Below are positions 5,484 through 42,167 of a DNA stretch of 64,000 bases, one piece after another. The notes under the pieces are model-generated. The model worked only from the letters and a program-made list of their open reading frames with translations, did not search any database and was not told where the DNA came from. The stretch spans positions 201,529-265,528 of the forward strand of contig DASWWW010000002.1 in the NCBI GenBank assembly GCA_036400935.1. The letters are read 5' to 3'. Position numbers and translations under genes: made by a program. The DNA comes from Minisyncoccota bacterium. Its GTDB lineage: Bacteria; Patescibacteriota; Minisyncoccia; Phycocordibacterales; UBA6065. Position 1 is the first letter of the stretch; each line of letters starts with the position of its first letter.

Positions 5484-5999
5484 GTGATGTTTTTCGACCG
5501 TTTGACTGCGAATAAGAGAGCGGGCACAATATCTTTTCCGGAACAGTTCTTCAAAAACAGCCTTTTCTATCCGATGGCAAAAACCCGCACCGTAACTCCC
5601 TTCCCAACCAATCCATTCGTACTGCTCGTGCCCTACAAGCTCGAGCATCCGAACGGGTCCAAAGCCACGCTGCTGTCAGGAACCTTCATTTTCTGTGTAA
5701 ACGGGCCGGCAAAGCTCGACAGCATGGGCAGGACGCTCGTGACTTTCACAGCATACGGAAGCGCCGAGCAGCTCGAACTCACCAGAGAGCAGTTCGGCCC
5801 TCTTCCCTCGTACGTAGCTATCAGCCGCGAGTCCGGCAAATACATGAGCGGCGACGTATTTCAGGTCGTACCAAAAATGACGCACCCGAAAGGGCAGATA
5901 GTCGTCATCGATCCCGAAGTCGGGCATATAGCCCTGTCGCTCGATTCGGTCTATCCCGTCGACGGCCCGACGCACTCTCTCGCTCAATACGCTTCATAA
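5484..5999 (+). CDS. hypothetical protein
   Basis: 171-aa ORF followed directly by a strong rho-independent terminator; no recognisable motif. Confidence 0.5.
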   Translation: MMFFDRLTANKRAGTISFPEQFFKNSLFYPMAKTRTVTPFPTNPFVLLVPYKLEHPNGSKATLLSGTFIFCVNGPAKLDSMGRTLVTFTAYGSAEQLELTREQFGPLPSYVAISRESGKYMSGDVFQVVPKMTHPKGQIVVIDPEVGHIALSLDSVYPVDGPTHSLAQYAS

Positions 6000-6002
6000 A
6001 AC

Positions 6003-6035
6003 GCAAACGGCACCCTCGCAGGTGCCGTTTTTTAT
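6003..6035. terminator. bidirectional rho-independent terminator
   Basis: ggcaccctcgcaggtgcc hairpin followed by TTTTTT; sits between convergent genes 5484..5999(+) and 6038..7447(-). Confidence 0.6.
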
Positions 6036-6037
6036 CA

Positions 6038-7447
6038 CTATCCCCTCGGATCGAATATCGACGGATCGAGCTTCTCTCCTGCCACTATCTTTGAGATGCG
6101 CTCTGCGCCGAATACCGATGGCAGTATGCCTACGCCGTTGCAGCCCAGGTTATAGAGGAGGGCCTTGTTCTTTGGCTCCTCACCTACGACGCGCACGCCC
6201 GATGGCGTATACCCCATGAGGCCGTGCCAGGTGAACTGATAGTCGATCTTCTTGTTCGGGTCTGGATCATAGGTCGATTTCACGAATTCCTGGATGCGGC
6301 GCTTCTCCTCTTCCGGATAGTCGAGATCTGAATCGTATTCCACCCTCTTTTCAAGGGAAAATTCCGGACCACCCACGCTGATGAGGTTCGAATTCTCGTG
6401 GCCTTCGACCTCGAAAGGACGGCGCGTGAGGTAGAAATAGGGGTCTTCGGCGTACGGATCGCTCGAATTGGTGTTTGCCGGCTCGAAATAGCTGACGGCT
6501 ATCGGCGGCTTGTTCATCGGCTCGAGATATGCGGACATATAGCCGACCATTCCGCGAACCAGATGATGGAACTTGGTATCGATGGCAAGACCGCCTTCGT
6601 TGATAATGGTGAGCCCCTCGAAACCGTTGGTACACAGGACGACCCGCTCTGACGTTATCGTGTGCTTTCCGGCGTCCAAAATAGCCCTTTTGTCGTGCAT
6701 GGCCACCTTCTGTATAGAAGTGTGCTCGAAAAGGGTGAATCGTCCGGCAAATTCCTTGAGCAGGTATGCGGCGATCTCCTGGCAGAAGAGGGCCGAGTTA
6801 AGACAGCCCTTCTGGTATGAGAGCGCGGCCATATAATTGCGGTTATCGGTCTGAAGGCGCGACAGGACCTCGCTCTGAGGCACTACTTCGTAAAAATCCT
6901 TGTATTCGGCAGGGATACCAGCCAAAAATGGCGCGTTGTCGGCTATGCGCATCTCCTCATTGCGGAGGCCGGCCTTTCGCCTGCACACATTATCCTTGAG
7001 GTGACGCACGACCTGGTCGTAGGTCGAAAATCCGGCATGGCCCATAAAGCGCGCCAGAGGGATAGAAAGCCCGGCCTCGGTAAACATGCGATCGATGAGG
7101 CTCCATGCGCCCTCGATCGATTTCTGGGCTTCAGCGGCCTTTTCTAGGCCAAATTCGTCGGCTAGCTCGTAAAACGGCCTCTCGAAATAGCTGGCGATCT
7201 GGCCTGCATTATGGCCGGTAGCACCATGGGCGAGCTTGCCCTTCTCAACTACGACGACCTTCTTGTCCGTATTCTTGAGCAAGAAAAAAGCCGTCGATAT
7301 GCCGGCGATACCCGCTCCGACAATGACGACGTCCGTCTCTATGTCTCCCGGCAAAGTGACGGTCGGCCGGTCCTGATTCATCTGATAAATCCATGGTGAT
7401 CGGTATTTCATGGACTGATTATAATTTAGTCCTTCCAATTCCACCAC
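6038..7447 (-). CDS. FAD-dependent oxidoreductase (DAO/amine-oxidase-like)
   Basis: 469 aa; dinucleotide-binding motif VVIVGAGIAGISTAF near N-terminus followed by VVVVEKG...HGATGHNAG; start may be an internal Met (MKYRSPW or MNQDRP). Confidence 0.75.
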   Translation of the reverse strand: MVELEGLNYNQSMKYRSPWIYQMNQDRPTVTLPGDIETDVVIVGAGIAGISTAFFLLKNTDKKVVVVEKGKLAHGATGHNAGQIASYFERPFYELADEFGLEKAAEAQKSIEGAWSLIDRMFTEAGLSIPLARFMGHAGFSTYDQVVRHLKDNVCRRKAGLRNEEMRIADNAPFLAGIPAEYKDFYEVVPQSEVLSRLQTDNRNYMAALSYQKGCLNSALFCQEIAAYLLKEFAGRFTLFEHTSIQKVAMHDKRAILDAGKHTITSERVVLCTNGFEGLTIINEGGLAIDTKFHHLVRGMVGYMSAYLEPMNKPPIAVSYFEPANTNSSDPYAEDPYFYLTRRPFEVEGHENSNLISVGGPEFSLEKRVEYDSDLDYPEEEKRRIQEFVKSTYDPDPNKKIDYQFTWHGLMGYTPSGVRVVGEEPKNKALLYNLGCNGVGILPSVFGAERISKIVAGEKLDPSIFDPRG

Positions 7448-17534: not shown

Positions 17535-20333
17535 CTACCACTCGAATTTCTCAACAATCCCCTCAATAGCGCTCTTTATGCGGGTAACGATACCTCTTCG
17601 CTCAAGTATCCTTGGTTGCTCTGGAAGCAGATCAGCAACATCCTGTTCTCGAGGCAGCTTCTGGGTATAGAGGTAATCACCAATCAATCCTTCGATCTTA
17701 TCCACTGGAATCTTCTCATCGTGCGCCAATTGCTTTAGCACTTCAGATCGCTTACTCTGCCAGAATTCGCCGAATGCCTTTTCTACGTCGTCTGCCTTGT
17801 GGAGCTTGGGCAAGCTCTCTTCGATGAACTTCTTGACCAAGTCCTTCTTCTTGCGAAGTTGCATATCCCTATCAAAGATGTGCAACACCTCTTCAGTCTT
17901 TTTCTTTCGCACGGAGTCAGAGGTGATGTTCTTCAGTCCGGCAATAAGCAGGATGATGTAATCGAAATTAACGATGTCTCGGAGAGTTAGCTCAAGCTCG
18001 AAATCAATCTGGTCGAGGATAGACTCAGCGCCAGCATCCTTATTCCTACGCTCCTCATAGACGTCCAAGTACTTGCTCTGGTAGTCATAAAATTCCTGCT
18101 CGGTAATACCAACATCCTCAAACGAGAATTCAGCAAACGTCTCAAGTGATGACTTAATACGCAACAGGTCACGGAACGTCTTGATGAAGCCAGCTTTTTC
18201 TTCTTCGCTCTGTAATGCATCGATTGAAGCCAGTGTAGGAACTTTTTCCTTAAGCTCGTTCAGCTTGGCAGTAAACTCCTTCTTCTGATCCTCATAAGGC
18301 TTCTTGAATACTATTTCCTTTGCATTCTCATCACCGAATAGCGCCAACGCTGTGTCGGTAGCTTTCTTTAAGTTACGGAACGAGACGATATTGCCATGGG
18401 GCTTGTCCGAATTGAGAAGTCTGTTTGTTCGTGAGTACGCCTGAATAAGACCGTGGTAGCGGAGGTTCTTATCCACGTACAAGGTATTGAGTCGTGGGCT
18501 ATCAAAACCAGTAAGGAAGATGTTTACAACGATAACCAGATCAACCTCCTTGTTCTTAATGCGCTTCTGCAAATCTCGGTAGTAATCGTAAAAGCGATCC
18601 GTTGAGAAGTTTGTTGCATAAAGCTCGTTGTAATCCTTGATGCAGTCTTCTAGGAAATCGCGGGAGTGCTGATTGCCGGTCGTACCTTCGCCAGCAAAGA
18701 TATCGATATCGAGCATGTCGTTGCTCTCTTCCTCGTTTGCCTGATAGGTGAAGATGGTCGCTATCTTAAAGTCACTCGCTTTCTTGTTCTTGAATAGTGC
18801 GTAGTAGCGCTTAAGTACTTCAATGTTTGATACAGCAAAGAAGGCATTAAATTTGCCTGACTTCGTTTTACGCTTCCAGTCAGCAAGGATGTAGTCGGTA
18901 ATTTTATTCAAACGATCATCGCTTTCGAGTACCTCGCGCTTACCTACACCCTCGACAAGAGCTTCTGCGAAAATATCCGCATCCAGTGTGTCTGGCGACT
19001 TCTGTGTGTACTTGCCGACATACTCAACCGCAAAGCCGAGAACATTATTATCAGAAATAGCGTTCGTGATGATGTATTTGTGGAGACATGAGTCAAAGAC
19101 GTCTGCGGTAGTTACGCCGCCCACGTTGTTGTCAGCGAAGATGGGTGTACCAGTAAAACCAAAGAGCTGTGCCTTGTTGAAAAAGCCTTTAATGCGAGCG
19201 TGTGTCTGTCCAAACTGGCTGCGGTGACATTCGTCAAAGATGATCACCACCTTCTCGTCGGTGAGGTATGCAAACTTGCTGGAGTGGTTCTCGCGACCAA
19301 TGGCAATATCGAGCTTCTGAATGGTGGTGACGATGAGCTTTCGGTTTGTGTCAGCAAGCTGGGCTACTAGATTGCGAGTGCTGTCTGTGCCGTCCACAGA
19401 GCCGTCAGAGAAGGAGTTAAATTCCTTTGTGGTCTGGATATCGAGATCCTTTCGATCTACGACAAAAAGCACCTTCTTGACTTCAGCCATGCGGGACAGT
19501 ATCTGACTTGCCTTGAATGAGGTCAGGGTCTTTCCCGAACCAGTAGTGTGCCAGATATAACCGTTCTTGTCTGACTCTTTCACGCGCCCCTCAATAGTTT
19601 TTACAGCGTAGTACTGGTATGGGCGCAGCACCATCGGGATCTGTAGCGACTCAGCCAAGACGATGTATTCGGCGATCATCTTTGACACGGCGCATTTTTC
19701 CAAGAACGCATTCGCAAAGTCTTCAAGCTGAGTGATCTTGGTGTTGTTCTCATCAGTCCAATAGAAGGTCTGCTCAAAAGACTGGCGTGGATTGTTTGAG
19801 AAGTATTTTGTATTTACTCCATTTGAAATAACGAAGATCTGGATGTATTCAAAAAGTGTTCCAGTGAATGAATGCTTGTGGTAGCGCTGGATCTGGTTAA
19901 ACGCCTCTTTCATTTCCATACCACGACGCTTCAACTCAACTTGCACGAGAGGCAGACCGTTTATGAGAAGCGTCACGTCATAGCGGTTCTCATACCGGCC
20001 GGACTGTGTCAGCTGGTGAGTAACCTGATATTCGTTCTTGCACCACTGCTCCATATTGAAAAAGCGCACGTAGAAAGTACTTTCGTCGTCTCGTGCTAGG
20101 GCGTAGCGATCTCGGAGTGTTTTTGCCTTTTGGAACCGATCTCCTTTGTTGAGGTGGTTTAGAATGCGAGAAAACTCCTTCTCAGAAAAGGTGGTGCTAT
20201 TAAACTTCTCAAGCTGAGTCTGAAGGTTCTTAATCAGTGCGTTAGTGTCAGCCAAAACAACTGGTTCAAAACCCAGCCCTCCAAGCTGTTCTAGAAGCTC
20301 TTTTTCAAGTTGTTGTTCTGATTGATGGGTCAT
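17535..20333 (-). CDS. hsdR: type I restriction enzyme R subunit (HsdR)
   Basis: Track ORF 17535..20366; likely start ATG 20333 (MTHQSEQ) overlapping hsdS stop (ATGA). SF2 helicase motifs (TGSGKT, DECH-like FDECHRS), HsdR_N domain; AT-rich relative to flanks. Confidence 0.85.
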   Translation of the reverse strand: MTHQSEQQLEKELLEQLGGLGFEPVVLADTNALIKNLQTQLEKFNSTTFSEKEFSRILNHLNKGDRFQKAKTLRDRYALARDDESTFYVRFFNMEQWCKNEYQVTHQLTQSGRYENRYDVTLLINGLPLVQVELKRRGMEMKEAFNQIQRYHKHSFTGTLFEYIQIFVISNGVNTKYFSNNPRQSFEQTFYWTDENNTKITQLEDFANAFLEKCAVSKMIAEYIVLAESLQIPMVLRPYQYYAVKTIEGRVKESDKNGYIWHTTGSGKTLTSFKASQILSRMAEVKKVLFVVDRKDLDIQTTKEFNSFSDGSVDGTDSTRNLVAQLADTNRKLIVTTIQKLDIAIGRENHSSKFAYLTDEKVVIIFDECHRSQFGQTHARIKGFFNKAQLFGFTGTPIFADNNVGGVTTADVFDSCLHKYIITNAISDNNVLGFAVEYVGKYTQKSPDTLDADIFAEALVEGVGKREVLESDDRLNKITDYILADWKRKTKSGKFNAFFAVSNIEVLKRYYALFKNKKASDFKIATIFTYQANEEESNDMLDIDIFAGEGTTGNQHSRDFLEDCIKDYNELYATNFSTDRFYDYYRDLQKRIKNKEVDLVIVVNIFLTGFDSPRLNTLYVDKNLRYHGLIQAYSRTNRLLNSDKPHGNIVSFRNLKKATDTALALFGDENAKEIVFKKPYEDQKKEFTAKLNELKEKVPTLASIDALQSEEEKAGFIKTFRDLLRIKSSLETFAEFSFEDVGITEQEFYDYQSKYLDVYEERRNKDAGAESILDQIDFELELTLRDIVNFDYIILLIAGLKNITSDSVRKKKTEEVLHIFDRDMQLRKKKDLVKKFIEESLPKLHKADDVEKAFGEFWQSKRSEVLKQLAHDEKIPVDKIEGLIGDYLYTQKLPREQDVADLLPEQPRILERRGIVTRIKSAIEGIVEKFEW

Positions 20334-21559
20334 ATAAATAATTTTTGTAGCAAACCTCTTTTCCAAGTTTCTACTTTTCTAATTTGCAATTCTTTTGACT
20401 CGATCATTGCGTCGAGGGAAACGAGAAAATCTGCAATTTTGTTCTGCTCCTGTATGGAAGGAAGTTGCACTTTGGCTTCAGAAAAATATTTAAAACTTAT
20501 CATTTTTCCATCTCTTATGCCTTCAAGTTTGCTAATTAATCTTCCAATGTAAGCAGGGCTCTTAAAAAGGAATTTAAAGAAGTACGTATTTACATCGATT
20601 TTTGACCTTAGAACGATATAGGCTGGGCTGCACAACCCATCATATTCGGAGTATTCTATGCCTCCCTGAAACGATCTCAGGCTAATTATAAAATCTCCCT
20701 TTCTAACAACTTTATAGCCAGCAATGCCTTTTTCTGAAACTTGAACTTTGTAATTTATCAAGTAACGAGGGACTGCACCCTGATCCTGTGTTATGGCCAA
20801 AATTGGTAAATCCTTTTGTGGGTTCTTATTAGATATATTTTCAAACACTTCGTCACCATTTACCACAGACCATTCGGGAAATTCTTTTCCGTTGTCATCT
20901 TGAAAGCGGATTTTTTGAGAAAAAATTTTCTGTACCACATCTTTTTTGTAGTTTTCTAACGAGGTTTTCTCCTTCTTCAATAGAGAAAGGTATTCAATAA
21001 CCACGTCCAAAAAGGAGCTGATCTTTCTCTGTTCATCTATTGCTGGAACATAGATCTTATCTTGCAGTACATGAGCGTTATTAATCTTCATGTCATTCTT
21101 CGCACCCTTTTTAACTAGCGGTCGAAGGTACCGATTTGTGTTGCTATCCAGAGAAAAATAGTAATCAAGAAAGCTACCATGCGCTTGATTCTCTATCACA
21201 CCGTAGACGGCGTAGAGCGTTGAAACTATTCCCGTTTTACCTTTATTTACCTTTATTACTCCATAAGGATTAGCCTTTAATGGGCTTTTTGTATAAACAA
21301 TGTCCCCCGTATCTACAACATGGTAGTTATGTACCGATTTTCCAGCATAAGAGCGACCTAAATGCTCAACCTGATTGACAACACCCACGTCACCCGAAAC
21401 TGAGAGTACATCGTCTTTGGTGTACTTAAGGTCACCATTGCGCTTCTTGGACTCCTTTAGTAATTCACTTAATTTCGTATTTTTCCAACCATCAGTAAAT
21501 TCACCGAAACGTAATTCGGGTACTTTTATTTTTTGTTCTTTTGAAATGATGGCAGGCAT
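20330..21559 (-). CDS. hsdS: type I restriction-modification specificity subunit (HsdS)
   Basis: 409 aa with two TRD-like halves separated by conserved coiled regions; between hsdM and hsdR. Confidence 0.8.
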   Translation of the reverse strand: MPAIISKEQKIKVPELRFGEFTDGWKNTKLSELLKESKKRNGDLKYTKDDVLSVSGDVGVVNQVEHLGRSYAGKSVHNYHVVDTGDIVYTKSPLKANPYGVIKVNKGKTGIVSTLYAVYGVIENQAHGSFLDYYFSLDSNTNRYLRPLVKKGAKNDMKINNAHVLQDKIYVPAIDEQRKISSFLDVVIEYLSLLKKEKTSLENYKKDVVQKIFSQKIRFQDDNGKEFPEWSVVNGDEVFENISNKNPQKDLPILAITQDQGAVPRYLINYKVQVSEKGIAGYKVVRKGDFIISLRSFQGGIEYSEYDGLCSPAYIVLRSKIDVNTYFFKFLFKSPAYIGRLISKLEGIRDGKMISFKYFSEAKVQLPSIQEQNKIADFLVSLDAMIESKELQIRKVETWKRGLLQKLFI

Positions 21560-21562
21560 GGC

Positions 21563-23140
21563 TTAGAAAGGTTTATCTATCTTCAGTTCATCACAAAACT
21601 CAGCAATTCTATTCTGCAAGTTAACTTCCACTTTTCTCATTTCCTTTAATTCCGAAGCGATCAAACCTATATCAATATTTTCTACTTCTTCAAAAGTATC
21701 AACATATCTTGGAATATTGAGGTTATATTCATTAGACTTTATTTCTTCGAGAGTGGCTCGATGGGAGTAGCGTTCAATTTCTTGTCTATTTTTGTATGTA
21801 TCAAAAATCTTTGAAATATTTGCATCACTTAAAACATTTTGACTCTTTCCCTTTATGAAATCCGATGACGCATCAATAAACAAAACATCATCGTCATCCT
21901 TACGACACTTCTTTAAGACCAAAATCATTGTAGGAATACCCGTGCCGTAAAATAAATCGGGTGGTAAACCTATAACAGCATCAAGGTAGTTTTGTTTTTC
22001 AATTATATATTGTCTTATCTGAGCCTCAGCGCCCGATCGGAACAAGGCGCCATGCGGTAATACAATCGCCATTGTCCCGTTATCAGCAAGGTGATAGAGC
22101 ATATGGGTAACAAAGGCATAATCTGCTGCACCTTTTGGAGCTAGTCTTCCATACTGAGAAAATCTATCGTCATGTACCAGTTGAGGGTCAGTATCACCCT
22201 TCCACTTCGCTGAAAAGGGCGGATTAGCCACCACAGCCTCGGCTTTGAGTTCTGGCAGTAGATCTTCAGTAAGAGTGTCTCCGTTTTTTATCTTAAAGTG
22301 GTCAAAGTGAACTCCGTGCAAAATCATATTCATACGACCAAGATTGTAGGTCGTGGGGTTGAGTTCCTGTCCAAAATAGCTAGTTACTTCGACATAGTCT
22401 TTAAGTCGAAGCAACAGAGATCCGGAACCACAAGTGGGGTCGTAAACGGTTTTGATACGTTTCTTTCCAACGGAAACTATTTGAGCTAGCAGGCGCGATA
22501 CCTGCGCTGGGGTGTAAAATTCGCCACCTTTCTTACCGGCTCCTGCAGCAAATTCGCCGATAAGATATTCGTAAGCGTCACCAAGCAGATCACTCTTTGA
22601 GTCTTCGAGTTTGAAATCAATGCCGTTAAGGTGCGCTAAGACTTCAACAATAACCGCATTCTTTTTCTGTTCGGTTGAACCGAGTTTAGAAGAAGTAAGG
22701 TCTACATCATCGAAAAGTCCCTTGAAGTCGTCCTCACTAGCAGTACCCATAGAGGTCTGCTCGATGGAGTTGAGTATGTTTTTAAGATCCTCCAAAATAA
22801 ACGACTCTTCTCCTTGGACGTTTCCTTTCCCCTTATTTACGAGATAAGAAAATAGTTGTGTCGGTTTAAGGAAGAAGCCAAGATGGTCAATACAACTTTC
22901 TCTAATATGCTCGATATATTCTTTACCTTCTTTTGATTTTTCTTTTATCTCAGCAAAACTAAAATCCTCTCTAGCCAGCAACTTTTCGTCTACATAGCGT
23001 TCCAGCTTTTCAGACAAGTATTTATAGAAAATAAAGCCGAGAATATAGTTCTTATATTCATCCGCGTTCATCTTGCCGCGTAGCACATTTGCTACCGCCC
23101 ACAATTGTTTTTCGAGTAATCGCTTTTGTTCGTCAGACAT
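21563..23140 (-). CDS. hsdM: type I restriction-modification N6-adenine DNA methyltransferase (HsdM)
   Basis: 525 aa; HsdM_N domain, AdoMet motif (DPTCGSGSLL) and catalytic NPPF (VVANPPFSAKW). Confidence 0.85.
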   Translation of the reverse strand: MSDEQKRLLEKQLWAVANVLRGKMNADEYKNYILGFIFYKYLSEKLERYVDEKLLAREDFSFAEIKEKSKEGKEYIEHIRESCIDHLGFFLKPTQLFSYLVNKGKGNVQGEESFILEDLKNILNSIEQTSMGTASEDDFKGLFDDVDLTSSKLGSTEQKKNAVIVEVLAHLNGIDFKLEDSKSDLLGDAYEYLIGEFAAGAGKKGGEFYTPAQVSRLLAQIVSVGKKRIKTVYDPTCGSGSLLLRLKDYVEVTSYFGQELNPTTYNLGRMNMILHGVHFDHFKIKNGDTLTEDLLPELKAEAVVANPPFSAKWKGDTDPQLVHDDRFSQYGRLAPKGAADYAFVTHMLYHLADNGTMAIVLPHGALFRSGAEAQIRQYIIEKQNYLDAVIGLPPDLFYGTGIPTMILVLKKCRKDDDDVLFIDASSDFIKGKSQNVLSDANISKIFDTYKNRQEIERYSHRATLEEIKSNEYNLNIPRYVDTFEEVENIDIGLIASELKEMRKVEVNLQNRIAEFCDELKIDKPF

Positions 23141-23141
23141 A

Positions 23142-23324
23142 TTATTTGGTGCTTGCCCGCTTAAGGAAGGCGTCGAACTCAGCCTTGTCTATTCTAAATT
23201 CCTTACCAATCTTATATGCCTTCAATTTACCCGCTTTGATATAGCGATAGATGGTCATTATGTTAACGCCCAATTTCTCCGCAAGATCCTGCGCTGTATA
23301 AAATTCCTTACCAGACATAGGCAA
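23142..23324 (-). CDS. helix-turn-helix DNA-binding protein (excisionase/MerR-like)
   Basis: 60 aa; YTAQDLAEKLGVNIMTIYRYIKAGKLKAYKIG; 1-nt spacer to hsdM start. Confidence 0.7.
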   Translation of the reverse strand: MPMSGKEFYTAQDLAEKLGVNIMTIYRYIKAGKLKAYKIGKEFRIDKAEFDAFLKRASTK

Positions 23325-23415
23325 AGTATACTTTACAATTCTTTACACAGCAAACGGAGTGTTGCCGACCTGTGGATACAAGCCCTTTCCAAGTTTGCCG
23401 TTATTTTGCCGTTTT

Positions 23416-23913
23416 TTATTCAGCCTTTCGGTAGATCTTCTTGCCGTCGAAGATAACCTCTTCAACTTTCCAAGCACCCATATCGTCTACGTCACCACCA
23501 GTAAAAATCATGATCGTACTCCAGTTGGAACGGATCATCGCACCATAGCTATTTTGACTATCTACACACGACACCACCTTCCATCGGTTATCTCCAAGAT
23601 CAGTTGCTATGCTAGAGCAAAAATCTGCGGTCGATGGCGACTCAAGAAGTTTCTCAATATAGAACTCGGAGAACGACCTAGCAGATAGTTCGTAACTATA
23701 TGCTGATGGTGGTTCTGGCACTCGAGGACTCGACGGAACTATTGCTGCCGTAAAGATGCTAGTAAAAATTCCTATGCCGAATAGTACAAATACTACTTTT
23801 ATTATTGGCGACATAGGCTGCGGCAATTTGCTTCCGCAATGCGAACACTTCTTTGCCTTAGGGTCTACTTCTGCCAGACACTGAGGACATTTCTTCGTTG
23901 GGGTTTTATCCAT
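23416..23913 (-). CDS. zinc-ribbon membrane protein (hypothetical)
   Basis: 165 aa; N-terminal CPQC...CSHC zinc ribbon, one TM helix, C-terminal extracytoplasmic domain. Confidence 0.5.
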   Translation of the reverse strand: MDKTPTKKCPQCLAEVDPKAKKCSHCGSKLPQPMSPIIKVVFVLFGIGIFTSIFTAAIVPSSPRVPEPPSAYSYELSARSFSEFYIEKLLESPSTADFCSSIATDLGDNRWKVVSCVDSQNSYGAMIRSNWSTIMIFTGGDVDDMGAWKVEEVIFDGKKIYRKAE

Positions 23914-24098
23914 AAATAATTAGCCAGCTAATAAGGCTGGCGTGGGGTTCAGTGTCTTCGTTGGGGTTTCCCGACCATATCCTTTGGAAAACAAAGGGGT
24001 TAGGTCGCTGGTCTTTCGGCCAGATATTCAATTGTGGCAACAGTGACAAAAACCACTGCTGTAGTCCTATTTTAGCTTAAAAGAAGGCTTTTGATAAG

Positions 24099-26810
24099 TT
24101 ACGGAGCGAGTCTTGACGATAGAAGCCCCACATCTTCAGTACTATCGACTTTTTGGAAACTAGCCAAGACTTTCTTTTCGGCTTCAGGCGTCCAATATAT
24201 TTTTAAGTTTTCTTTAGCTCTGGTTATAGCTGTATAGAAAATGTTATGTGTAATCATTTCTTCAGTCTCGCTCGTAATTACGATTTTCACCGAGCCATAC
24301 TCTAGGCCTTGAGCCTTGTGGATTGATACAGCATAAGCAACCTGAAATGGAACCACCGAGTCGAGTGGTTCGTCGTCTTCATCAGAGTCGCCTTGATCAT
24401 TAACTATAAAGCGCACTATCGAATTTCCGCTTTCTGCATTTCCAACCAGCTCAAAATCATAGCCCGATGCCTGCAGTTCGTTTATGGCCTTATCGATCTC
24501 AATATCAAATTGGATCTGATGTTCAGACTTATCTATGGCGACAATTCGACCCTTCAAGTTGTTATAGATTATGGGCGCGAACCTCTCCGTCTCGTTAAAC
24601 AAAATCGGATCACCAACTTTATAGGTCTGTATACCCCAATCAACTGCTGGACTGTTGTTGTTGCTCTGTAGGAATTTGTTGAGGTTATTTATGCCGTACA
24701 AACCATCGTAGTTTAAACAGAGAATTATTTCGTCATCTTTAAGATCTCCAAAAATAGACTCATTTAAAACAGTGGTGTACCCATTCCTCGTCATGATTTC
24801 CAAGATGTTGTCCTTAAGGTTTCTGACTCTGTTCCAAAATTCAATCAACTCTTCGTTAGTAGTTCTATAAGGGACTGTGAGTTCAGATACCGCAGTCTTT
24901 GGTACGAAGTATCGAGCGACGTTAAACCAGTTTCCAAATATTATTGACTCAATCTGGAATACATCACCCACCAGTATGAGAGTCTTAAATTTTGCCTTAT
25001 TCAGCACATCGATCATGTCAGTGTTACTCACCGTACTGCACTCATCGATAACAAGGAGGTCATAGTCAGTGTCAGTATTCCTGTCCGACAGAAATTTCGT
25101 AATAGTTTGGAACGTACAGTTAGCCGCAGTTACTTTTCTTTTCAGGTTATCAACCGCCGGATTAGTATTCGCTAAATAGAGCTTGTTGTTGTCGTTAAAG
25201 AAATTCGATATGTGGTTTATGAGCGTAGATTTTCCTGTTCCAGCAGCACCGTATATCAAAGCCACTTCGGAGTCAGCAAACAGTTGTCTCAAGATCCTTT
25301 CCTTGTCCTCGCAGTCGATCTGATAGGCGGTCGATTTTAGCCATGAGTCTACAGAGTTTGAGTAGTTGCTTATGCCACCACATGAAAGCTCCTTGAGCCT
25401 CTTGATGATATCTAAGGTGTCTTTCTCATAACCATTTATGTAAATAAAATCCTTAAAGTTCTCCAACTTGCGATGATTGTGCTTGGGAAGATACAGCTCA
25501 CCATTGTAGGTCGTCATCAATGACTCAACCTCTTCTTTAGTTTTAGATAAATCGCTCAGGGGCGTATACAGTTTTCCTTTGTTTTCAGTATTGTTCCTTA
25601 TCAATCTTGCAAAAAGTTCATGCTTTCGATCAGTGGCATCAATACACTCGAAAACATCCGATATCTTCGGATTGTGTCCTATCAACGAGGAATTGAAGGG
25701 CATCTTATCGAACGGCTTACAGCCAAGGTTGAAATTTAAATCATTTCGAAGTTTATAGCCGTTATAGCGGCAACGCTGCATTTTTATAATCCTATTGTTC
25801 AAGGAACGAAGTAGGTATCTCACTACATTTGTACCGACTTCGTTGTTTTTGATCAGAGATTTTGCTTTATCCAAGACAGGTAGAAAATTCACCGCCTGTA
25901 CACCTTGGATAATACGGATTTTTGCGGCGTCATAGTACTCATCTGAGAGATCGATAAGTTCAACAAGACTCAAATCAGTCTCTGTTAAGAAACTCATCAG
26001 GTTTTTATACTCGGCATGTGTTGTTTGAATATTTATGTCCTCATCTAAAATACGAGCAAAGTTGTTAAGCTCGCAAGGTCGTATTGAAACCTCCCATTTA
26101 TCAATAATTTGAATGGGCATTTTTTTGCCCAAGACCTCAATGTCGTCGTGGATTATCGAAAACTTAACAGCGTAATTGTCTGAAATATCTAGCTTGGTAA
26201 AAGCGATGACACGATCAAACTTACCAACCCTTGCACTCGCAATTGTAAAAGTGACTTCGTAATATATCTCGTGGTTAACAAAAAATGGCTTGATCTTCTG
26301 GATGTAGTACCGATCCTTGTAAGAACTTACTTTTCTTGCCTTTGTTGGGTGTTCGATCTGCTCAACTATCTTTGCGTAATATTCCTGCAACGCAGGGTCG
26401 GTATTGATAGGAAATTTATCAATATTACCTAAAACCTCTAGACCATAGGTGTGCTTCAGGCGCGATTTGATCCTGAGCAGATACTCGTAATACTTCAGCA
26501 TCAAACGTTCAGAATTTTCTTCGCTTTGCGTATAGTGCGAAGCAACACCTTGCAGAAAGTTGTGAAATCTTCTCAAAAACCCCAGCTTCCCACTCGGCTG
26601 CAATTTATTTGGGGCATTTATTAATCCATCCGGTGTAATCTCAACATCTTGGCCGTTAGCTCCTTCTTTTAGGGCTATATGCTCAACAAAGTTTCTGAGC
26701 TGGGAGAGAATGTTCTGCGACAAAAGACCTCTTTCAGAGGCATGGAATTTATCGATATTTTTACAGATGGCTGTATTGATAGTAAGTATCGCATCGTCGA
26801 TCTTGCTCAT
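24099..26810 (-). CDS. SF1 RecD/TraA-like DNA helicase with ~490-aa uncharacterised N-terminal region
   Basis: 903 aa; Walker A LIYGAAGTGKSTL (~res 500), Walker B LLVIDECS, C-terminal UvrD_C_2-like motif VSIHKAQGLEYGSVKIV...FYTAITRAKENLKIY; N-terminal half has no recognisable motif; very AT-rich. Confidence 0.75.
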   Translation of the reverse strand: MSKIDDAILTINTAICKNIDKFHASERGLLSQNILSQLRNFVEHIALKEGANGQDVEITPDGLINAPNKLQPSGKLGFLRRFHNFLQGVASHYTQSEENSERLMLKYYEYLLRIKSRLKHTYGLEVLGNIDKFPINTDPALQEYYAKIVEQIEHPTKARKVSSYKDRYYIQKIKPFFVNHEIYYEVTFTIASARVGKFDRVIAFTKLDISDNYAVKFSIIHDDIEVLGKKMPIQIIDKWEVSIRPCELNNFARILDEDINIQTTHAEYKNLMSFLTETDLSLVELIDLSDEYYDAAKIRIIQGVQAVNFLPVLDKAKSLIKNNEVGTNVVRYLLRSLNNRIIKMQRCRYNGYKLRNDLNFNLGCKPFDKMPFNSSLIGHNPKISDVFECIDATDRKHELFARLIRNNTENKGKLYTPLSDLSKTKEEVESLMTTYNGELYLPKHNHRKLENFKDFIYINGYEKDTLDIIKRLKELSCGGISNYSNSVDSWLKSTAYQIDCEDKERILRQLFADSEVALIYGAAGTGKSTLINHISNFFNDNNKLYLANTNPAVDNLKRKVTAANCTFQTITKFLSDRNTDTDYDLLVIDECSTVSNTDMIDVLNKAKFKTLILVGDVFQIESIIFGNWFNVARYFVPKTAVSELTVPYRTTNEELIEFWNRVRNLKDNILEIMTRNGYTTVLNESIFGDLKDDEIILCLNYDGLYGINNLNKFLQSNNNSPAVDWGIQTYKVGDPILFNETERFAPIIYNNLKGRIVAIDKSEHQIQFDIEIDKAINELQASGYDFELVGNAESGNSIVRFIVNDQGDSDEDDEPLDSVVPFQVAYAVSIHKAQGLEYGSVKIVITSETEEMITHNIFYTAITRAKENLKIYWTPEAEKKVLASFQKVDSTEDVGLLSSRLAP

Positions 26811-38011: not shown

Positions 38012-38107
38012 ACGCGAAGTATATCAGCTTCATTTTTTGGGCCAAATGTGCTAATTTCAAATGACTCGCGGCGGGCAGATCGATAGGCCCACATCCGCGC
38101 AGCATAT

Positions 38108-38178
38108 TGCCGGATCGTCTAAAGGCAGGACGTCGCTCTCTGAAAGCGAAAATTTTGGTTCGATTCCAAGTCCGGCAA
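38108..38178 (+). tRNA. tRNA-Gln (anticodon CTG)
   Basis: Manual fold: acceptor tgccgga/tccggca (U1:A72), D-stem gtct/ggac with GG in loop, anticodon stem tcgct/agcga with loop ctCTGaa (U33, A37), 4-nt variable loop, T-stem tttgg/ccaag with TTCGATT loop; discriminator A; no encoded CCA. Confidence 0.75.
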
Positions 38179-38222
38179 CACGCACAGAAAAACCAGTCTT
38201 AAGACTGGTTTTTCTGTGCGTG
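38179..38222. terminator. long perfect hairpin (≈20-bp stem) immediately 3' of tRNA-Gln
   Basis: cacgcacagaaaaaccagtc tta agactggtttttctgtgcgtg; A- and T-runs inside make it bidirectional terminator-like. Confidence 0.55.
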
Positions 38223-38394
38223 TTTGAGGAGAAGCGCTGCCAGTGGCAGCGCGACTTGGAATCGAAGCCGTTCTCCCATATTTTCGAGCGTTTCCACGCG
38301 AGAAAATGGGAAACGGGTACTGACCCTGTAAGGGTCGATGAAAAGTCGACAATAACATATCAAAATAAAAGAGACCCGAGGGCCTCTATGAAAA

Positions 38395-38958
38395 CTACCG
38401 GTCGAAGTCGAACCGGCTCGCGGGAGCGATCGCAATGAAATAAAGGTGCCACCTGGACCGATCTATCTGTATGACCTCACCCTCATTGCCGAGCTCGCAA
38501 GCGACAAAAACATGCGGCTCGCCCTTCCACATGATTTCCATGGATCGCGTCAGCCGCCTGCCAACGAGCTGCCTGAATATTTCTTCGGGAGGGGGCGGGG
38601 TGCTTTTGTCATCAGTACCGAACTTGGTGACAGGAATCCCAAACTCGCCCGGAAGGTCGATATGGCAGCACCAGTTCCAAATGCGATCCTCTTCAGCACT
38701 CTCGTGCACGTGAATGCCGCCCGATGTCGTCCGCTCGTACGCGAGCCGCTCCAAGAGCGACCGCGGAACCGGCCATTTTCCGACGGCAATGAGTTTGCCG
38801 ATCTGATCGAGCGACTTGTCTGCTTCCGGATGCGTGGTGCAGAGGGTATGAAGCATTTCCGGATAACCCCCGTTCTTGACGATGGCTTCGGTAAGCTTCT
38901 GCAGGAACTGCATGCCCATTCCGAGACCGGACACTAACTGCGATGGCGTATTTTTCAT
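38395..38958 (-). CDS. hypothetical protein
   Basis: 187-aa ORF; composition more protein-like than overlapping plus-strand ORF 38446..38937; no motif. Confidence 0.35.
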   Translation of the reverse strand: MKNTPSQLVSGLGMGMQFLQKLTEAIVKNGGYPEMLHTLCTTHPEADKSLDQIGKLIAVGKWPVPRSLLERLAYERTTSGGIHVHESAEEDRIWNWCCHIDLPGEFGIPVTKFGTDDKSTPPPPEEIFRQLVGRRLTRSMEIMWKGEPHVFVACELGNEGEVIQIDRSRWHLYFIAIAPASRFDFDR

Positions 38959-38969
38959 GAACTAAGATG

Positions 38970-38996
38970 CATGGCTTGTCCAACCTTCCCGAACTG
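38970..38996 (+). repeat. degenerate copy (R0) of intergenic repeat family
   Basis: catggcttgtccaaccttcccgaactg aligns with R1 (catggcttaaccagagttccaacatcgtcccacactg) with internal deletions. Confidence 0.3.
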
Positions 38997-39099
38997 TACG
39001 GGCTCTCGGACTTACCCATGATCCGTTCGCTACATTACAACGAAAATATAAAAAATCAAGTGGTTCGTGGTGGCTCCACGGCTTCGAATTATCACTTTC

Positions 39100-39151
39100 T
39101 TTCAAAACATGGCTTAACCAGAGTTCCAACATCGTCCCACACTGCCAACAA
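39100..39151 (+). repeat. intergenic repeat R1 (core GTTCCAACATCGTCCCACACTGCCAACAA)
   Basis: Core 39123-39151; shares extended 5' arm tttcaaa..cttaaccag with R2; ~37 bp upstream of ATG 39187. Confidence 0.7.
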
Positions 39152-39186
39152 TTGAAGTTTCGCTCGGAAAGTGATAGTTTTGCATA

Positions 39187-39844
39187 TATGTCAACGCCCG
39201 TTTGCTCGACGGATTTCATGAAAGATTCCCTGAAGTTCTTCACGAAAGAGCTCGTGTATTCGTGGTTCGAGCACTGCAAGAAAATGGACGCCGTTTTGAA
39301 GGACGAAATCGAAGGCAATCTCGAAAAGTTTGCAAAGAACCAGAACTGCTTGCCCGGGGAGCTTGAGGCAAGATTCGTAAAAGCCCTGAAAGATTCCTCG
39401 ATTCCCCTTAGTTACAATCTCGCGAACTTGGAGGCGTATCACGGCTACAGCGTCTACGCCTTTCCGGACAACGGAAAAATAAACAAGGATAGCGGAAAGC
39501 CCGACCTCTATTACGGCATCGCGAAGGCTAACGTATTCGGAGTGACGCATACTCACAAATTGAGCGACGCCTTCAACTACATCCTCGACGGCGAAGGAGT
39601 GTTCACGGGTGATCCGGAGGACAAAGGAAAATTCCCTTTCCATTACCACGGCAGGCCGATGGTTGAGGGCGCCCAATTCGAAATTCCAATTGGCATGACG
39701 CACGGGCATCTGGTGAAGAAAGGAAACGACATCTGGTTCCTCTTCGTGCAGGAGTGCGGATTCAAGCCAAAGCTGCGCTGTGCCGGCGATTTCTATACGG
39801 TTAATGGCTATAACAAGGGGCAGTTCGGCCCCTACTACGTCTAG
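39187..39844 (+). CDS. cupin-domain protein (hypothetical)
   Basis: Track ORF starts at TTG 39152 inside repeat R1; ATG 39187 (MSTPVCSTDF...) more likely. C-terminal GVTHTHKLSDAFNYILDGEGVF...HYHG cupin-like motifs. Confidence 0.55.
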
Positions 39845-39848
39845 CCAA

Positions 39849-39900
39849 TTTCAAATGACGACTTAACCAGGGTTCCAACATCGTCCCAGACGGCCAACCA
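39849..39900 (+). repeat. intergenic repeat R2
   Basis: tttcaaatgacgacttaaccagGGTTCCAACATCGTCCCAGACGGCCAACCA; 28 bp upstream of ATG 39928. Confidence 0.7.
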
Positions 39901-39927
39901 GCAAAAGTTTTGTGCTAGCATATCCTC

Positions 39928-40323
39928 ATGCGAAGACCGAAAATTCTCGAAGATGCAGGTTTTGATATATATGCCGACACTTCTCGGCTGCGGGATTTGC
40001 CGTTGCCGGTGACGCAGGTGGAAGTCAAAGAACTCGCTTGGTACTTTGACCTGCCCGTATGGGAAAAGGAAGGGACCGACGAATGGAACCTGACCCCGCG
40101 GGAGGTCATGGACGGCAAGGAAGGCTCTGCTGAGCATAAGTCGAAGGTGGACGAATCCGATCTGGGCTTTCCGATTGTGATTGTCCGCAACAGGGACAAG
40201 TGGGTCATTCTCGACGGCATCCACAGGCTCGTCAAGGCGTACCTTTTAGGGAAAGAGACGATTGATGCAAAAATAGTTACCAAGGGCGACCGGTATCTTC
40301 AATCCGCTCAGAAAACGGCCTGA
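39928..40323 (+). CDS. ParB/sulfiredoxin-like domain protein (hypothetical)
   Basis: 131 aa; WVILDGIHRLVKAY resembles ParB-N/Srx DGxHR motif. Confidence 0.45.
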   Translation: MRRPKILEDAGFDIYADTSRLRDLPLPVTQVEVKELAWYFDLPVWEKEGTDEWNLTPREVMDGKEGSAEHKSKVDESDLGFPIVIVRNRDKWVILDGIHRLVKAYLLGKETIDAKIVTKGDRYLQSAQKTA

Positions 40324-40328
40324 TCAAG

Positions 40329-40357
40329 GTTCCAACATCGTCCCACACTGCCAACAA
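40329..40357 (+). repeat. intergenic repeat R3
   Basis: GTTCCAACATCGTCCCACACTGCCAACAAA; 26 bp upstream of ATG 40384 (AGGTG SD-like between). Confidence 0.7.
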
Positions 40358-40383
40358 ATAAGTTTGGTACAATTAGGTGCGAG

Positions 40384-40737
40384 ATGAAATACTGGATTAA
40401 CAGACTTTCGCATCCGCTCCGAGGCCTGAAGTATGCCTTCACCCGCGACTTTGCTGTCCGCTTCGAGACTATTGTGTTTGGAATTATTGGAATACCAGCG
40501 GTCTACTTTTTCTTTGGGCCGCTTTCGGCGAAAGAACTGTTGTTATTGATATTCTGCTGGTTTTTCATTATAGTCACCGAAATTCAAAATACGTCTATTG
40601 AAATAGCGCTCACGAAGCTTCATCCTGAGCATGATGAGGCAATTGGTCGAAGCAAGGACTTAGCTTCGGCAGCTGTGGTATGGGCTTTCGTGTTTGGGCT
40701 AGTCAGTCTGATATTCGTGCTCTGTCGAAAGCTTTAG
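40384..40737 (+). CDS. diacylglycerol kinase (DgkA/undecaprenol kinase) family protein
   Basis: 117 aa, 3 TM; conserved E..N.AIE / IEIALTKLHPEHD-like DgkA core. Confidence 0.7.
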   Translation: MKYWINRLSHPLRGLKYAFTRDFAVRFETIVFGIIGIPAVYFFFGPLSAKELLLLIFCWFFIIVTEIQNTSIEIALTKLHPEHDEAIGRSKDLASAAVVWAFVFGLVSLIFVLCRKL

Positions 40738-40741
40738 AAAA

Positions 40742-40771
40742 GTTCCAACATCGTCCCACACGGCCAACCAA
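40742..40771 (+). repeat. intergenic repeat R4
   Basis: GTTCCAACATCGTCCCACACGGCCAACCAA; 46 bp upstream of ATG 40818. Confidence 0.7.
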
Positions 40772-40817
40772 GTTGAGATTAGTTCATATCGCCCAAGTTC
40801 CGTTGTAAGATACAGAC

Positions 40818-41345
40818 ATGCGCATCACAATCCTCGGGCTTCCGGGAAGCGGAAAATCCACTCTTGCGCGCAATATTGCGGAAAGACTTCATATTCCCCA
40901 CATCCATATCGATCGCTTTTGGGTTGAGGCGGGAGGCGGCCACAATGTTCGAACCACTCAAGACCCAAAGCGAACGCACGAGCATGTCAGGACGAAAGTC
41001 CTCGAGGCGATACAGGGAGAATCATGGGTGTCTGACGGCGTCTACGGCCTTATCCAGCCAGAGATAGCCAGGCGAGCTGAAGCCATAGTCTTTCTCGACA
41101 CCCCCTTCTGGCGAAGACTAATCAATCACGCGCTGCGAACCGTACGTCGCAAGCATCGACGGGATGAGATGACGTTCTGGGGAGACGTCGAATTCTTTAG
41201 GGAGCTGGTTGCGCGTGAGATGCGGGACAAGTCAAAGATAATGAAGTTCGTGGAAACGTATCCCGCAAAATCAGTCGTCCTGAAAAACAGGAAAGAGGTC
41301 AGACGATACCTAGCAGGCATCGCTCGGGATGGGTCGATTCAATGA
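40818..41345 (+). CDS. P-loop NTPase (adenylate-kinase/topology-modulation-protein-like AAA family)
   Basis: 175 aa; Walker A ILGLPGSGKSTLARNIA at N-terminus. Confidence 0.65.
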   Translation: MRITILGLPGSGKSTLARNIAERLHIPHIHIDRFWVEAGGGHNVRTTQDPKRTHEHVRTKVLEAIQGESWVSDGVYGLIQPEIARRAEAIVFLDTPFWRRLINHALRTVRRKHRRDEMTFWGDVEFFRELVAREMRDKSKIMKFVETYPAKSVVLKNRKEVRRYLAGIARDGSIQ

Positions 41346-41409
41346 CGCCGCCGACGCTCAAGTCGATGGAAGAGACGGCAACAAGAAATTTCTTTGCTAC
41401 AATTGAGCC

Positions 41410-41670
41410 ATGGATAATCTGATTGAGTTTTTTACAAAATTCTACGGCATCGATATCTTCGCAATGCTCCTGACTTTCACAGGCATCTACCTTATTGGTA
41501 ACAAGAAAAAGTACGGTTTCATCGTCGCACTTTTCGGAAACATAATCTGGGTATGTCTCGGTCTTTGGGTTCAGTCTATTGGGCTCATGTTCGCAAATTT
41601 CGTGATCGTAATTCTGTATGTGAGAAACTATATCAAATGGAAAGAATCTACTGATTCTGAGGTGAAATAA
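41410..41670 (+). CDS. small membrane protein (hypothetical)
   Basis: 86 aa, 3 hydrophobic helices; AT-richer than backbone. Confidence 0.4.
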   Translation: MDNLIEFFTKFYGIDIFAMLLTFTGIYLIGNKKKYGFIVALFGNIIWVCLGLWVQSIGLMFANFVIVILYVRNYIKWKESTDSEVK

Positions 41671-41903
41671 GCTCCCACATGCAAACACATTCCTCTCTCA
41701 AACCTATCCCCTCAGACAAACGCATAGTCATCAACGCCACCATGGGCACCGAAACACTCGCCTCCGCCAACGACATATTCAGCTACATCAGCCCCGACTT
41801 CAAAAACTGAGGATGCGACAAGACCGAGAAAGCAACTCCCGAAACGACTGTTGAAATATACGAGCAAACTGAAGACGCCGATTATCCCGCGATCTTCGGT
41901 AAC

Positions 41904-42167
41904 TTGAGCCAGAATCTCGACCAACTAATACTAACTACCCCGCAGATCAAAAGCTTCGTACTAAATCACGCACAGGATTTTCTTCTCGATGCAGAATGGA
42001 CTTGCTTCCGCTTTCTTTTTAAGGCGAATAACGAATTCTTCATTGCCGACGTGCGCATTCTCTCTAATGGCGAGCGCGCAGTTCGTGTCAGCCGCTTCCT
42101 GGACGGCTCCGTCCGACATGCCCAATACCGCCACCGCATCGTGGTTCCGCAACTTGCCGCAAACTAG
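41904..42167 (+). pseudogene. possible N-terminally truncated gene remnant (TTG-initiated ORF)
   Basis: Protein-like reading frame extends upstream of TTG without any ATG until an in-frame TGA; suggests 5'-truncated fragment. Confidence 0.25.

Follow-up and report, generated by a model that had tools for sequence, protein, structure and literature searches.

The genome of a Minisyncoccota bacterium (Patescibacteriota) contains a 64,000-nucleotide stretch (GenBank assembly GCA_036400935.1, contig DASWWW010000002.1, positions 201,529 to 265,528 of the forward strand; hereafter the window) in which four copies of a short repeat, R1 to R4, are each followed by a small gene. The question raised by this locus is whether the repeat controls the gene that follows it or bounds units that are gained and lost. 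Our results favor the second answer: R1 to R4 are probably the cassette-end recombination sites of an array anchored at a tRNA gene, the units of which would be moved by conservative site-specific recombination. Arrays of this anatomy start from tRNA-derived anchors, carry repeats whose last nucleotides covary with the anchor, hold genes in either orientation and differ completely in their cassettes between related genomes, the junction lying after ...CAGCAA. The survey points to an integron-like gene-capture system in at least 79 assemblies of the ultra-small Candidate Phyla Radiation (CPR)/Patescibacteria; in open-access papers, a 16-mer text search included, we found neither the sequence nor such arrays described.

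The core of the repeat, GTTCCAACATCGTCCCA(C/G)AC(T/G)GCCAAC(A/C)A, has exactly four occurrences in the 64 kb of the window (39123, 39872, 40329 and 40742), all of them on the plus strand, and none in shuffled sequence. Pattern count and shuffling thus confirm the positions given in a preliminary description of this DNA, together with the spacings of 749, 457 and 413 bp between consecutive cores. A weight matrix derived from 298 copies in other genomes assigned 47-51 bits to R1-R4 and at most 7.4 bits to the rest of the window, and a 14-nt sub-pattern searched with up to three mismatches showed no excess over chance there. R1 and R2 share the additional 5' arm previously noticed (22 nt; 86% identity across 50 nt), and the distances from R1-R4 to the next ATG were measured as 36, 27, 26 and 47 nt, in agreement with the earlier range of 26-46 bp. 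A degenerate copy, R0, had also been proposed near 38970, but this is a mere 20-nt, 75% match to the 5' arm that lacks the core, so that the number of repeat-preceded genes drops from the claimed five to four; the 86-aa gene at 41410 has no repeat. The two CCAAC half-sites ascribed to the core hold for the lineage of the window; elsewhere the second one is usually CCAGC, tracking the discriminator base of the tRNA discussed below. A 16-nt sequence, GC(T/C)AATTTCAAATGAC, occurs at 38050-38065, 43 nt 5' of this tRNA gene, and again at 39844-39859, where it opens the 5' arm of R2; the two are 15/16 identical, which may be chance.

Copies from other genomes define a site of ~35 nt, A.AAAG-GTTCCAACATCGTCCCA-g-AC-n-GCCAGCaa (right end GCCAGCAA), with conservation in the logo confined to positions -6 to +29 and a primary sequence that is near-invariant at 27 of 35 positions. 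Neither dyad symmetry in the logo nor an inverted repeat or palindrome was found in the site. In a scan of one genome per species, the 20-mer GTTCCAACATCGTCCCANAC was detected in at least 119 8-kb genome blocks; these blocks are the loci referred to below by L numbers, so that array sizes and per-genome counts are lower bounds. The pattern search is biased to canonical copies. Copies in a non-coding context belong to at least 79 assemblies, nearly all labelled as Patescibacteria lineages (Saccharibacteria, Paceibacterota/Parcubacteria, Nomura-, Kaiser-, Wolfe-, Berkel- and Pacebacteria, or plain Patescibacteria; labels as in the records, some of them probably generic), and a lineage-specific pattern retrieved 23 further metagenome contigs with the repeat. 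About one fifth of the genome-scan matches came from Rhodobacterales and were discarded as an unrelated coincidence in high-GC coding sequence. Loci of this type (L005, L016, L024, L030, L031 and others, and most of L122-L154) have the same 60-nt context throughout, including in related alphaproteobacteria. In IMG/VR, 33 matches were obtained, of which the 27 fitting the longer consensus all lie in the same Rhodobacterales-type coding context and none is of the CPR type; these matches are coincidences of the 20-mer and therefore do not point to a phage attP. The canonical left half is combined with the right halves ..CTCCCCGCCA and ..CTCTCCGCAG in two low-GC contigs, L047 and L032, which are labelled Micavibrio and Gammaproteobacteria and are probably misbinned.

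The arrangement of the repeats and genes was then compared across the arrays. With up to five mismatches allowed, 263 array copies were counted, and their orientation was uniform in 58 of the 59 contigs with at least two copies; the largest array has 13 copies in 7.4 kb. The 183 units lying between two sites have a median length of 579 nt (site spacing 153-3395 nt), and one dominant open reading frame (ORF) was found in 159 of them, on the same strand as the repeat in 92 and on the opposite strand in 67. Likewise, 88 genes have the same and 67 the opposite orientation in the set of 155 cassettes, showing that gene orientation is independent of the repeat. Neither the orientation nor the distance of the gene start relative to the site is fixed. 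In one array read base by base (L011), seven co-oriented repeats are accompanied by genes on the strands -, +, + (a tiny unit), -, -, -, -, and, by eye, promoter-like boxes lie within most units and a terminator hairpin within several. An extended -10 box follows the site in 37 of the 88 co-oriented cassettes and in none of the 67 opposite ones; in the latter, hairpins occur on the near (left) side, and a minus-strand promoter is located at the far end. Many copies of the repeat sit between convergent genes, and in co-oriented cassettes the site lies a median of ~10 nt past the stop codon. As to gene content, 64 Pfam families were identified among 150 cassette ORFs, including HAD, GNAT, methyltransferase, SDR, NUDIX and serine hydrolase; no more than six protein families are represented more than once, and none of nine homologous cassette pairs has homologous neighbours.

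These results bear on the possibility that the genes of a regulon share the repeat as their promoter, operator or UP-like element, through which a transcription factor or an alternative sigma factor controls the right-hand gene. Such a function would suit the window, where a co-oriented start codon follows every copy at 26-47 nt, and the frequent occurrence of an extended -10 box within a few nucleotides of the site in co-oriented cassettes; in addition, the reverse complement in one recurrent opposite module ends in TTGGAAC, which is separated from a TGnTAGGTT box by about the distance expected of a -35 element. However, a promoter is hard to reconcile with 67 of 155 genes on the other strand, with copies between convergent genes, with the uniform orientation of the copies in one array whatever the strands of the genes, and with a gene content that has no functional theme. 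It also offers no reason for an array to start at a tRNA 3' end, for the copied last nucleotides or for the exact break in synteny described below. We consider a regulon element very unlikely. Since the four genes that follow repeats in the window are all co-oriented with them, the first reading was misled, and the shared operator or promoter proposed in it is contradicted by the 88 and 67 genes on the two strands. A promoter, operator or 5'-UTR (untranslated region) is ruled out as the primary role of the repeat because genes occur on either strand, -10 boxes occur only in co-oriented cassettes and the promoters of opposite genes lie at the far end. Sigma-54 and extracytoplasmic function (ECF) promoter consensus sequences were compared by eye and rejected, as their spacing does not fit.

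The upstream ends of the arrays were found to be defined by tRNA sequences. In array-bearing loci of the CPR genome scan, 26 of 45 tRNA genes are tRNA-Gln, and all 26 have the array downstream, co-oriented and 342-2316 nt away; the same upstream layout was seen in four metagenome contigs. In the window, tRNA-Gln(CTG) is co-oriented with R1 and lies 944 nt upstream of it. About 40 loci without tRNA-Gln have an orphan sequence, GTTCGAT(A/C)CCTAGTCTGCCAGCAA (also written GTTCGATnCCTAGTCTGCCAGCAA), at the equivalent position. This orphan anchor consists of the T-arm hairpin and the acceptor 3' strand without the 5' half and often starts 0-3 nt past the stop codon of a housekeeping gene, such as those for YceG, YchF, M23 peptidase, AlaRS, HI0933-like or NusB, which together with DnaX make up the genes upstream of anchors; DnaX is near an array in 15 loci. 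Using a strict pattern, we found the anchor in 53 of 75 arrays with visible upstream sequence, while the controls gave none in antisense and one downstream. A recurrent block of housekeeping genes, SerRS - FtsQ-like - Dus - DnaX, is located directly upstream of the array-anchoring tRNA-Gln in L002, L013, L027, L038, L053 and others.

When right-aligned, the 16 nt that end the repeat, CCCAGACTGCCAGCAA, and the anchor sequence CCTAGTCTGCCAGCAA agree at 14 of 16 positions, and the last 5-9 nt track the resident anchor tRNA, while the left half is constant. In most genomes, tRNA-Gln has the discriminator G and the repeat ends in CCAGC; where the discriminator is A, as in L026 and the window, it ends in CCAAC, as do R1-R4. 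A tRNA-Gln ending in ..CCCCGAG (L079) is accompanied by the right end CGAGC in 3/3 copies, one ending in ..GGTAG (L077, L115, L035) by CTAGC (8/8 copies in L077, 1/2 in L035), and tRNA-Pro (L060, L066, L072) by ..CCGACA, which is the tRNA-Pro 3' end. Position 26 of the repeat and the tRNA discriminator were G/G in 63 cases and A/A in 6, with 6 mismatches. The 3' ends of tRNA-Gln match the repeat at a median of 9/13 nt, compared with 6/13 for other tRNAs. Since the identity of repeat and anchor reaches the trailer CAA, which is outside the mature tRNA, it is an identity at the DNA level.

The likeness to a tRNA might also suggest that the repeat acts as RNA, be it a 5'-UTR element, an intercistronic processing site or a mimic of the tRNA 3' end for a tRNA-processing enzyme. 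Its right half does resemble the T-stem and acceptor 3' strand of tRNA-Gln (the 14 of 16 nt shared with the orphan consensus), its plus strand is C-rich and unstructured, and its position shortly after the stop codons of co-oriented cassettes would be suitable. Nevertheless, single-strand folding of four intergenic regions gave z values of -0.3 to +1.8 on both strands, hence no excess stability, and Rfam returned no match to the site even at E<=10 (tRNA only in the array region), which contradicts the structured 5'-UTR considered in the preliminary description. Moreover, tRNA mimicry is impossible without the 5' acceptor strand and would not extend into the non-tRNA trailer CAA, and in opposite-strand cassettes the site lies upstream of the promoter, where sense transcription would not reach it. 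A function as RNA is therefore highly improbable.

To return to the cassettes, their turnover was followed between related genomes. Four genomes have a syntenic block through YchF and the anchor with 80-97% amino acid identity and no homologous genes downstream. In the closest pair, L067 and L092, ~90% nucleotide identity continues through ...GTCTGCCAGCAA (..GCCAGCAA) and the sequences are unrelated beyond. Cassette 4 of L039 corresponds to cassette 1 of L092 (86%); their homology opens at CCAGCAA, which belongs to the repeat in one genome and to the anchor in the other, and continues through the next repeat. Distal flanks can likewise be conserved, as in L020 and L110 (91-93% identical; 1 and at least 5 repeat copies) and, with a similar pattern, in L074 and L094 (1 and at least 3 copies). 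The window is syntenic with its relative L026 up to tRNA-Gln at ~76% nucleotide identity and different thereafter, and in another relative, L046, the four cassettes are replaced by ICMT-like, 122-aa and GNAT cassettes before the sequences rejoin at the pseudogene at 41679-42167. A homologue of the window's dgkA (68% amino acid identity) is a cassette of the unrelated L117 array, with the site ~10 nt past its stop codon and other neighbours, and a homologue of the 131-aa gene (56% identical) is flanked by diverged site copies on both sides and has different neighbours in L188. For the homologous cassettes of L002 and L007, the nucleotide alignment was too diverged for breakpoint mapping. Taken together, orthologous anchors carry entirely different cassettes; the identical gene order that had been named beforehand as evidence against a cassette array was not found in related genomes. 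In L188, the region upstream of the two diverged copies (1-4927) encodes a large serine recombinase, a Phage_CRI replication protein, a helix-turn-helix regulator and genes like those of cyclic-oligonucleotide-based antiphage signaling systems (CBASS; SMODS/DncV-like).

Turnover of this kind could be a relic if the arrays were passive scars, that is, decayed remnants of larger integrase-bearing islands or prophages at tRNA-Gln, with the repeats as old inactive attR sites. Anchoring at a tRNA and a partial tRNA 3' end in the repeat are known from islands formed by tandem integration (10.1101/2020.12.28.424599), no integrase is nearby, and a pseudogene and a decayed half-site are present at the distal end of the window. 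By contrast, the units are compact, at a median of 579 nt, and mostly intact single genes, and no fragments of integrase or replication genes were seen among the 150 ORFs (top 25 of 64 families). The 17-nt non-tRNA left half is near-invariant in assemblies labelled as many CPR lineages, so ongoing selection is needed, and content is wholly different between genomes whose flanking proteins are 95-98% identical. Scars of this sort are thus an unlikely explanation.

Cassettes might instead be swapped without any dedicated recombinase, the repeats serving as homology pads across which competent CPR cells recombine by RecA over 35 nt. This would be consistent with the lack of a recombinase linked to the arrays, with a primary sequence conserved without symmetry, with the genome-specific repeat variants of the arrays, and with natural competence, which is reported for Saccharibacteria (PMC10187176). 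Yet the right end of the repeat covaries with whichever tRNA is the anchor, Gln or Pro, as a short obligatory crossover core predicts. Furthermore, the first boundary shares just ~9-16 nt with the repeat, which is probably too short for RecA-dependent recombination, and synteny nonetheless breaks exactly there. We rate such swapping by homology as quite unlikely. Three other processes were rejected: Tn7-like or DDE transposition, as the cassettes have no conserved left end or terminal inverted repeats; Cas1-type repeat duplication, as the first boundary is unlike the repeat; and a DNA uptake sequence, as the copy number is too low and the copies lie in arrays.

The reading that we prefer is that of a cassette array with a recombination site for each cassette. 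The preliminary description had arrived at such an array, and its reading is supported and extended here; what has to be changed is the register: a repeat is part of its left-hand cassette, and the array opens at the tRNA-Gln 3' end (38179), which lies outside the interval given in that description. In the proposed scheme, which is the simplest one, the anchor would be the 3' end of tRNA-Gln or tRNA-Pro, or an orphan tRNA-Gln T-arm and acceptor strand directly behind a housekeeping gene's stop codon. Self-contained units of small size, usually with one gene in either orientation, its own promoter and often its own terminator, would be inserted successively and immediately 3' of this anchor, each unit having the ~35-nt site as its right end. 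The constant left half, A.AAAG-GTTCCAACATCGTCCCA-n-AC, is presumably bound by the recombinase, and the last 5-9 nt, which have the sequence of the anchor tRNA, are presumably the shared crossover core. The anchor would then consist of a tRNA-like left arm and this core, with the crossover taking place inside its ~5-9 nt. We infer that the incoming cassettes are circular (a reaction of the type attI x attC), that new ones enter beside the anchor and that the gene for the enzyme lies at another place in the genome or on a separate element. Insertion would keep the anchor intact and reusable and leave one repeat at the far end of the cassette; this would account for the register of n cassettes with n repeats and one anchor as well as for uniform orientation, covariation and the loss of synteny right after CAGCAA. 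We put forward more tentatively, as a possibility to be taken seriously, that Patescibacteria have a phylum-wide gene-capture platform of independent origin from integrons, with landing pads at tRNA-Gln, tRNA-Pro and many housekeeping genes, self-expressed one-gene cassettes stacked behind each pad and a trans-acting recombinase (host Xer-like or of an unrecognised class) working on an asymmetric 35-bp site, and that much of the accessory part of these reduced genomes is arranged and traded by it.

Several results weigh against a dedicated recombination system. A phmmer search with the Xer-like integrase of L019 gave no other match in ~900 kb of array-bearing sequence, recombinase families were absent from the top 25 of the 64 Pfam families among the 150 cassette ORFs, and the conserved neighbour genes considered as recombinase candidates all proved to be housekeeping genes. 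The site has neither a dyad nor a hairpin, which would be unusual for the core site of a tyrosine or serine recombinase, and sequence right of the core is not conserved, so that a second binding arm is not visible. Left-half variants within arrays are genome-specific (GTTCGAAC in L077, GTTCTAAC in L036), and local generation or homogenisation would account for this no less well than import would. Neither excised circles nor polymorphism between near-identical strains were observed; exact-protein look-ups of the window genes led only to Logan contigs of the same strain, which show the same array. Finally, the gene calls behind the statistics are crude longest-ORF heuristics. The Xer-like tyrosine recombinase gene of L019, the only one found by motif screens and phmmer, sits just outside an array, and none adjoins an anchor. 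Reverse-transcriptase genes adjoin repeats in L026 (7090-7917, minus strand; RVT_1, E=1e-24) and L032 (2753-3793, minus strand). They were rejected as the recombinase because their orientation to the repeat is inconsistent, and they are therefore probably cargo or independent retroelements.

The features of the array in the window are compiled in Table 1.

Table 1. Elements of the tRNA-anchored array in the window and copies of the X element in other loci.
Feature	Position	Strand	Description
Anchor tRNA-Gln(CTG)	38108..38179	+	ARAGORN and Rfam tRNA, 58 bits; 3' end ..GTCCGGCAAC, first (attB/attI-like) array boundary
Perfect palindrome, 24+24 nt	38177..38224	.	directly after tRNA-Gln, left end of cassette 1; probably a bidirectional terminator
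Cassette 1	38180-39151		palindrome, X element and 187-aa minus-strand gene
X element	38230..38345	+	three-hairpin structured element within cassette 1
X element, other copies	L046 1-86 and 774-862; L102 5813-5930(-); L115 531-643; L021 1468-1581; L163 ~5997-6113; L166 ~937-1026		
Terminator-like hairpins	38370-38417		
Cassette 1 gene, 187 aa	38395..38958	-	no Pfam match; opposite to repeats
R1	39117..39151	+	35-nt site, closes cassette 1; 47.5 bits; lineage-specific 5' arm back to 39100
Cassette 2	39152-39900		
Cassette 2 gene, 218 aa	39188..39844	+	Cupin_2, E=0.013, sub-threshold
R2	39866..39900	+	closes cassette 2; 48.4 bits
Cassette 3	39901-40357		
Cassette 3 gene, 131 aa	39928..40323	+	ParB-N/Srx-like by NCBI name only
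R3	40323..40357	+	closes cassette 3; 50.6 bits
Cassette 4	40358-40770		
Cassette 4 gene, dgkA	40384..40737	+	PF01219, E=2.6e-19
R4	40736..40770	+	closes cassette 4; final array copy; 49.4 bits
Distal flank	40818..42167	+	no bounding site; P-loop kinase, 86-aa ORF, pseudogene
P-loop kinase	40818-41345	+	AAA_18/17/33
PnuC-like ORF, 86 aa	41410-41670	+	
Pseudogene	41679-42167	+	disrupted; two ORFs, 43 and 87 aa

The gene identities proposed earlier stand for DgkA and the P-loop kinase, both backed by Pfam. The cupin remains sub-threshold, and the 131-aa protein has no Pfam match; it is named ParB after an identical NCBI entry, "ParB N-terminal domain-containing", from a Candidatus Paceibacterota metagenome-assembled genome. 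A homologue of the kinase in L177 is followed by a site. An intact 154-aa homologue of the pseudogene is located directly behind a repeat copy in L046 (2083-2547), and a decayed half-site, GCTCCCACATGCAAACAC, was recognised by eye and below the matrix threshold at ~41669-41690 of the window. In the short-read (Logan) data, contigs of the same strain stop to the left and to the right of the palindrome of cassette 1. A generic promoter and terminator scan of the array region gave counts at chance level.

For the X element of cassette 1, 33 pairs are predicted, with compensatory changes at 10 in a comparison of three sequences only; it belongs to no Rfam family. Its covariance model matches directly after anchors or repeats in L046, L102, L115 and L021, and the copies are always immediately downstream of an anchor or repeat and co-oriented with it. 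Part of the element is GACTTGGAATCGAA, whose reverse complement is exactly the tRNA-Gln T-loop/T-stem at 38159-38172. It may be cargo, as a small RNA cassette, or a component of the system. Apart from the array, the window has a low-GC island on the minus strand at 17535-26810 (GC 0.38-0.48 compared with ~0.55). It encodes a complete type I restriction-modification system (HsdR, 17535-20366; HsdS, 20330-21559; HsdM, 21563-23140) as well as a zinc-ribbon protein and a superfamily 1 (SF1) helicase at 24099-26810.

CPR/Patescibacteria are a very large and diverse group of bacteria with tiny genomes, and the routes by which they gain and lose genes are poorly understood; to our knowledge, classical mobile elements and integrons have rarely been reported in them. 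If the arrays are indeed built by site-specific recombination, a searchable 35-nt boundary site would give a direct handle on the flexible gene pool, as cassettes could be catalogued by pattern search, and the hypervariable regions beside tRNA-Gln and at the ends of core genes would be explained. It would also define a recombination reaction on a site without symmetry and, in the few Saccharibacteria that can be cultivated, would be available to genetic tools as a natural landing pad.

Among known systems, the arrays were compared with CRISPR arrays, with which they have in common a repeat of ~30-35 nt, uniform orientation, a leader-like anchor and unique inserts. CRISPR repeats of 28-37 nt alternate with unique spacers of about 30-40 nt that are non-coding, beside cas genes. 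The present inserts are, however, 150-3400 bp long and contain whole genes, and the first boundary is unlike the repeat; cas genes were not noticed in any of the loci, although no cas-specific search was made. Repetitive extragenic palindromic (REP) sequences, bacterial interspersed mosaic elements (BIME) and miniature inverted-repeat transposable elements (MITE) are palindromic or have terminal inverted repeats, are scattered in both orientations and are restricted to one species or genus. They differ from the present repeat, which has no palindrome, is uniformly oriented and is common to at least 79 assemblies of many CPR lineages. Xer modules (pdif modules; integrative mobile elements exploiting Xer, IMEX) are similar in that short conserved sites bound gene modules and the recombinase acts in trans. 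Sites of the dif type are 11-6-11 imperfect palindromes (11-bp arms and a 6-8-bp spacer), and pdif sites alternate in orientation. In contrast, the logo of the repeat shows no arm symmetry, its copies are all in direct orientation and a tRNA end acts as anchor.

The closest parallels are integrons and tRNA-anchored islands. Like sedentary chromosomal integrons and clusters of attC sites lacking integron-integrases (CALINs), the arrays have a fixed entry site, mostly single-gene cassettes that each end in a site, and one orientation of the sites; cassette diversity is very high in both (GNAT, NUDIX, HAD, methyltransferases), with complete turnover between relatives and array-specific site variants. 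Unlike in integrons, there is no intI beside the entry site and a single Xer-like gene in ~900 kb, and the site is a conserved primary sequence without the imperfect R''-L''/L'-R' palindrome, GTTRRRY core or folded strand of attC, which is itself little conserved in sequence. The 3' end of a tRNA, or an orphan copy of it, serves as the entry site, and one genome carries many arrays. Moreover, integron cassettes are promoterless, co-oriented and served by a common Pc promoter, whereas the present ones include promoters and terminators of their own and can have either orientation. The view that the array is neither CRISPR nor a canonical integron, already held in the preliminary description, is supported by the whole-gene spacing and the lack of intI and of an attC palindrome. 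Tycheposons of Prochlorococcus are additive islands anchored at tRNA genes that grow by tandem integration, newer elements displacing older ones from the tRNA (10.1101/2020.12.28.424599). They share with our arrays the full tRNA at the proximal end, partial tRNA 3' copies between insertions and streamlined hosts without classical mobile elements, and a displacement order that we infer here. They differ in being multi-kb elements with their own tyrosine or serine recombinase and a replication module, compared with ~0.6 kb, one gene and no recombinase in the present units, and in lacking the 17-nt non-tRNA half that is conserved phylum-wide here and the orphan anchors at the ends of many housekeeping genes. 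The system is therefore integron-like in its working, but is not an integron, since intI and the attC palindrome are missing and the cassettes have their own promoters and no common orientation; and it is tRNA-island-like in its anchoring, but is not a member of that group either, since tycheposons are multi-kb and carry their own recombinase.

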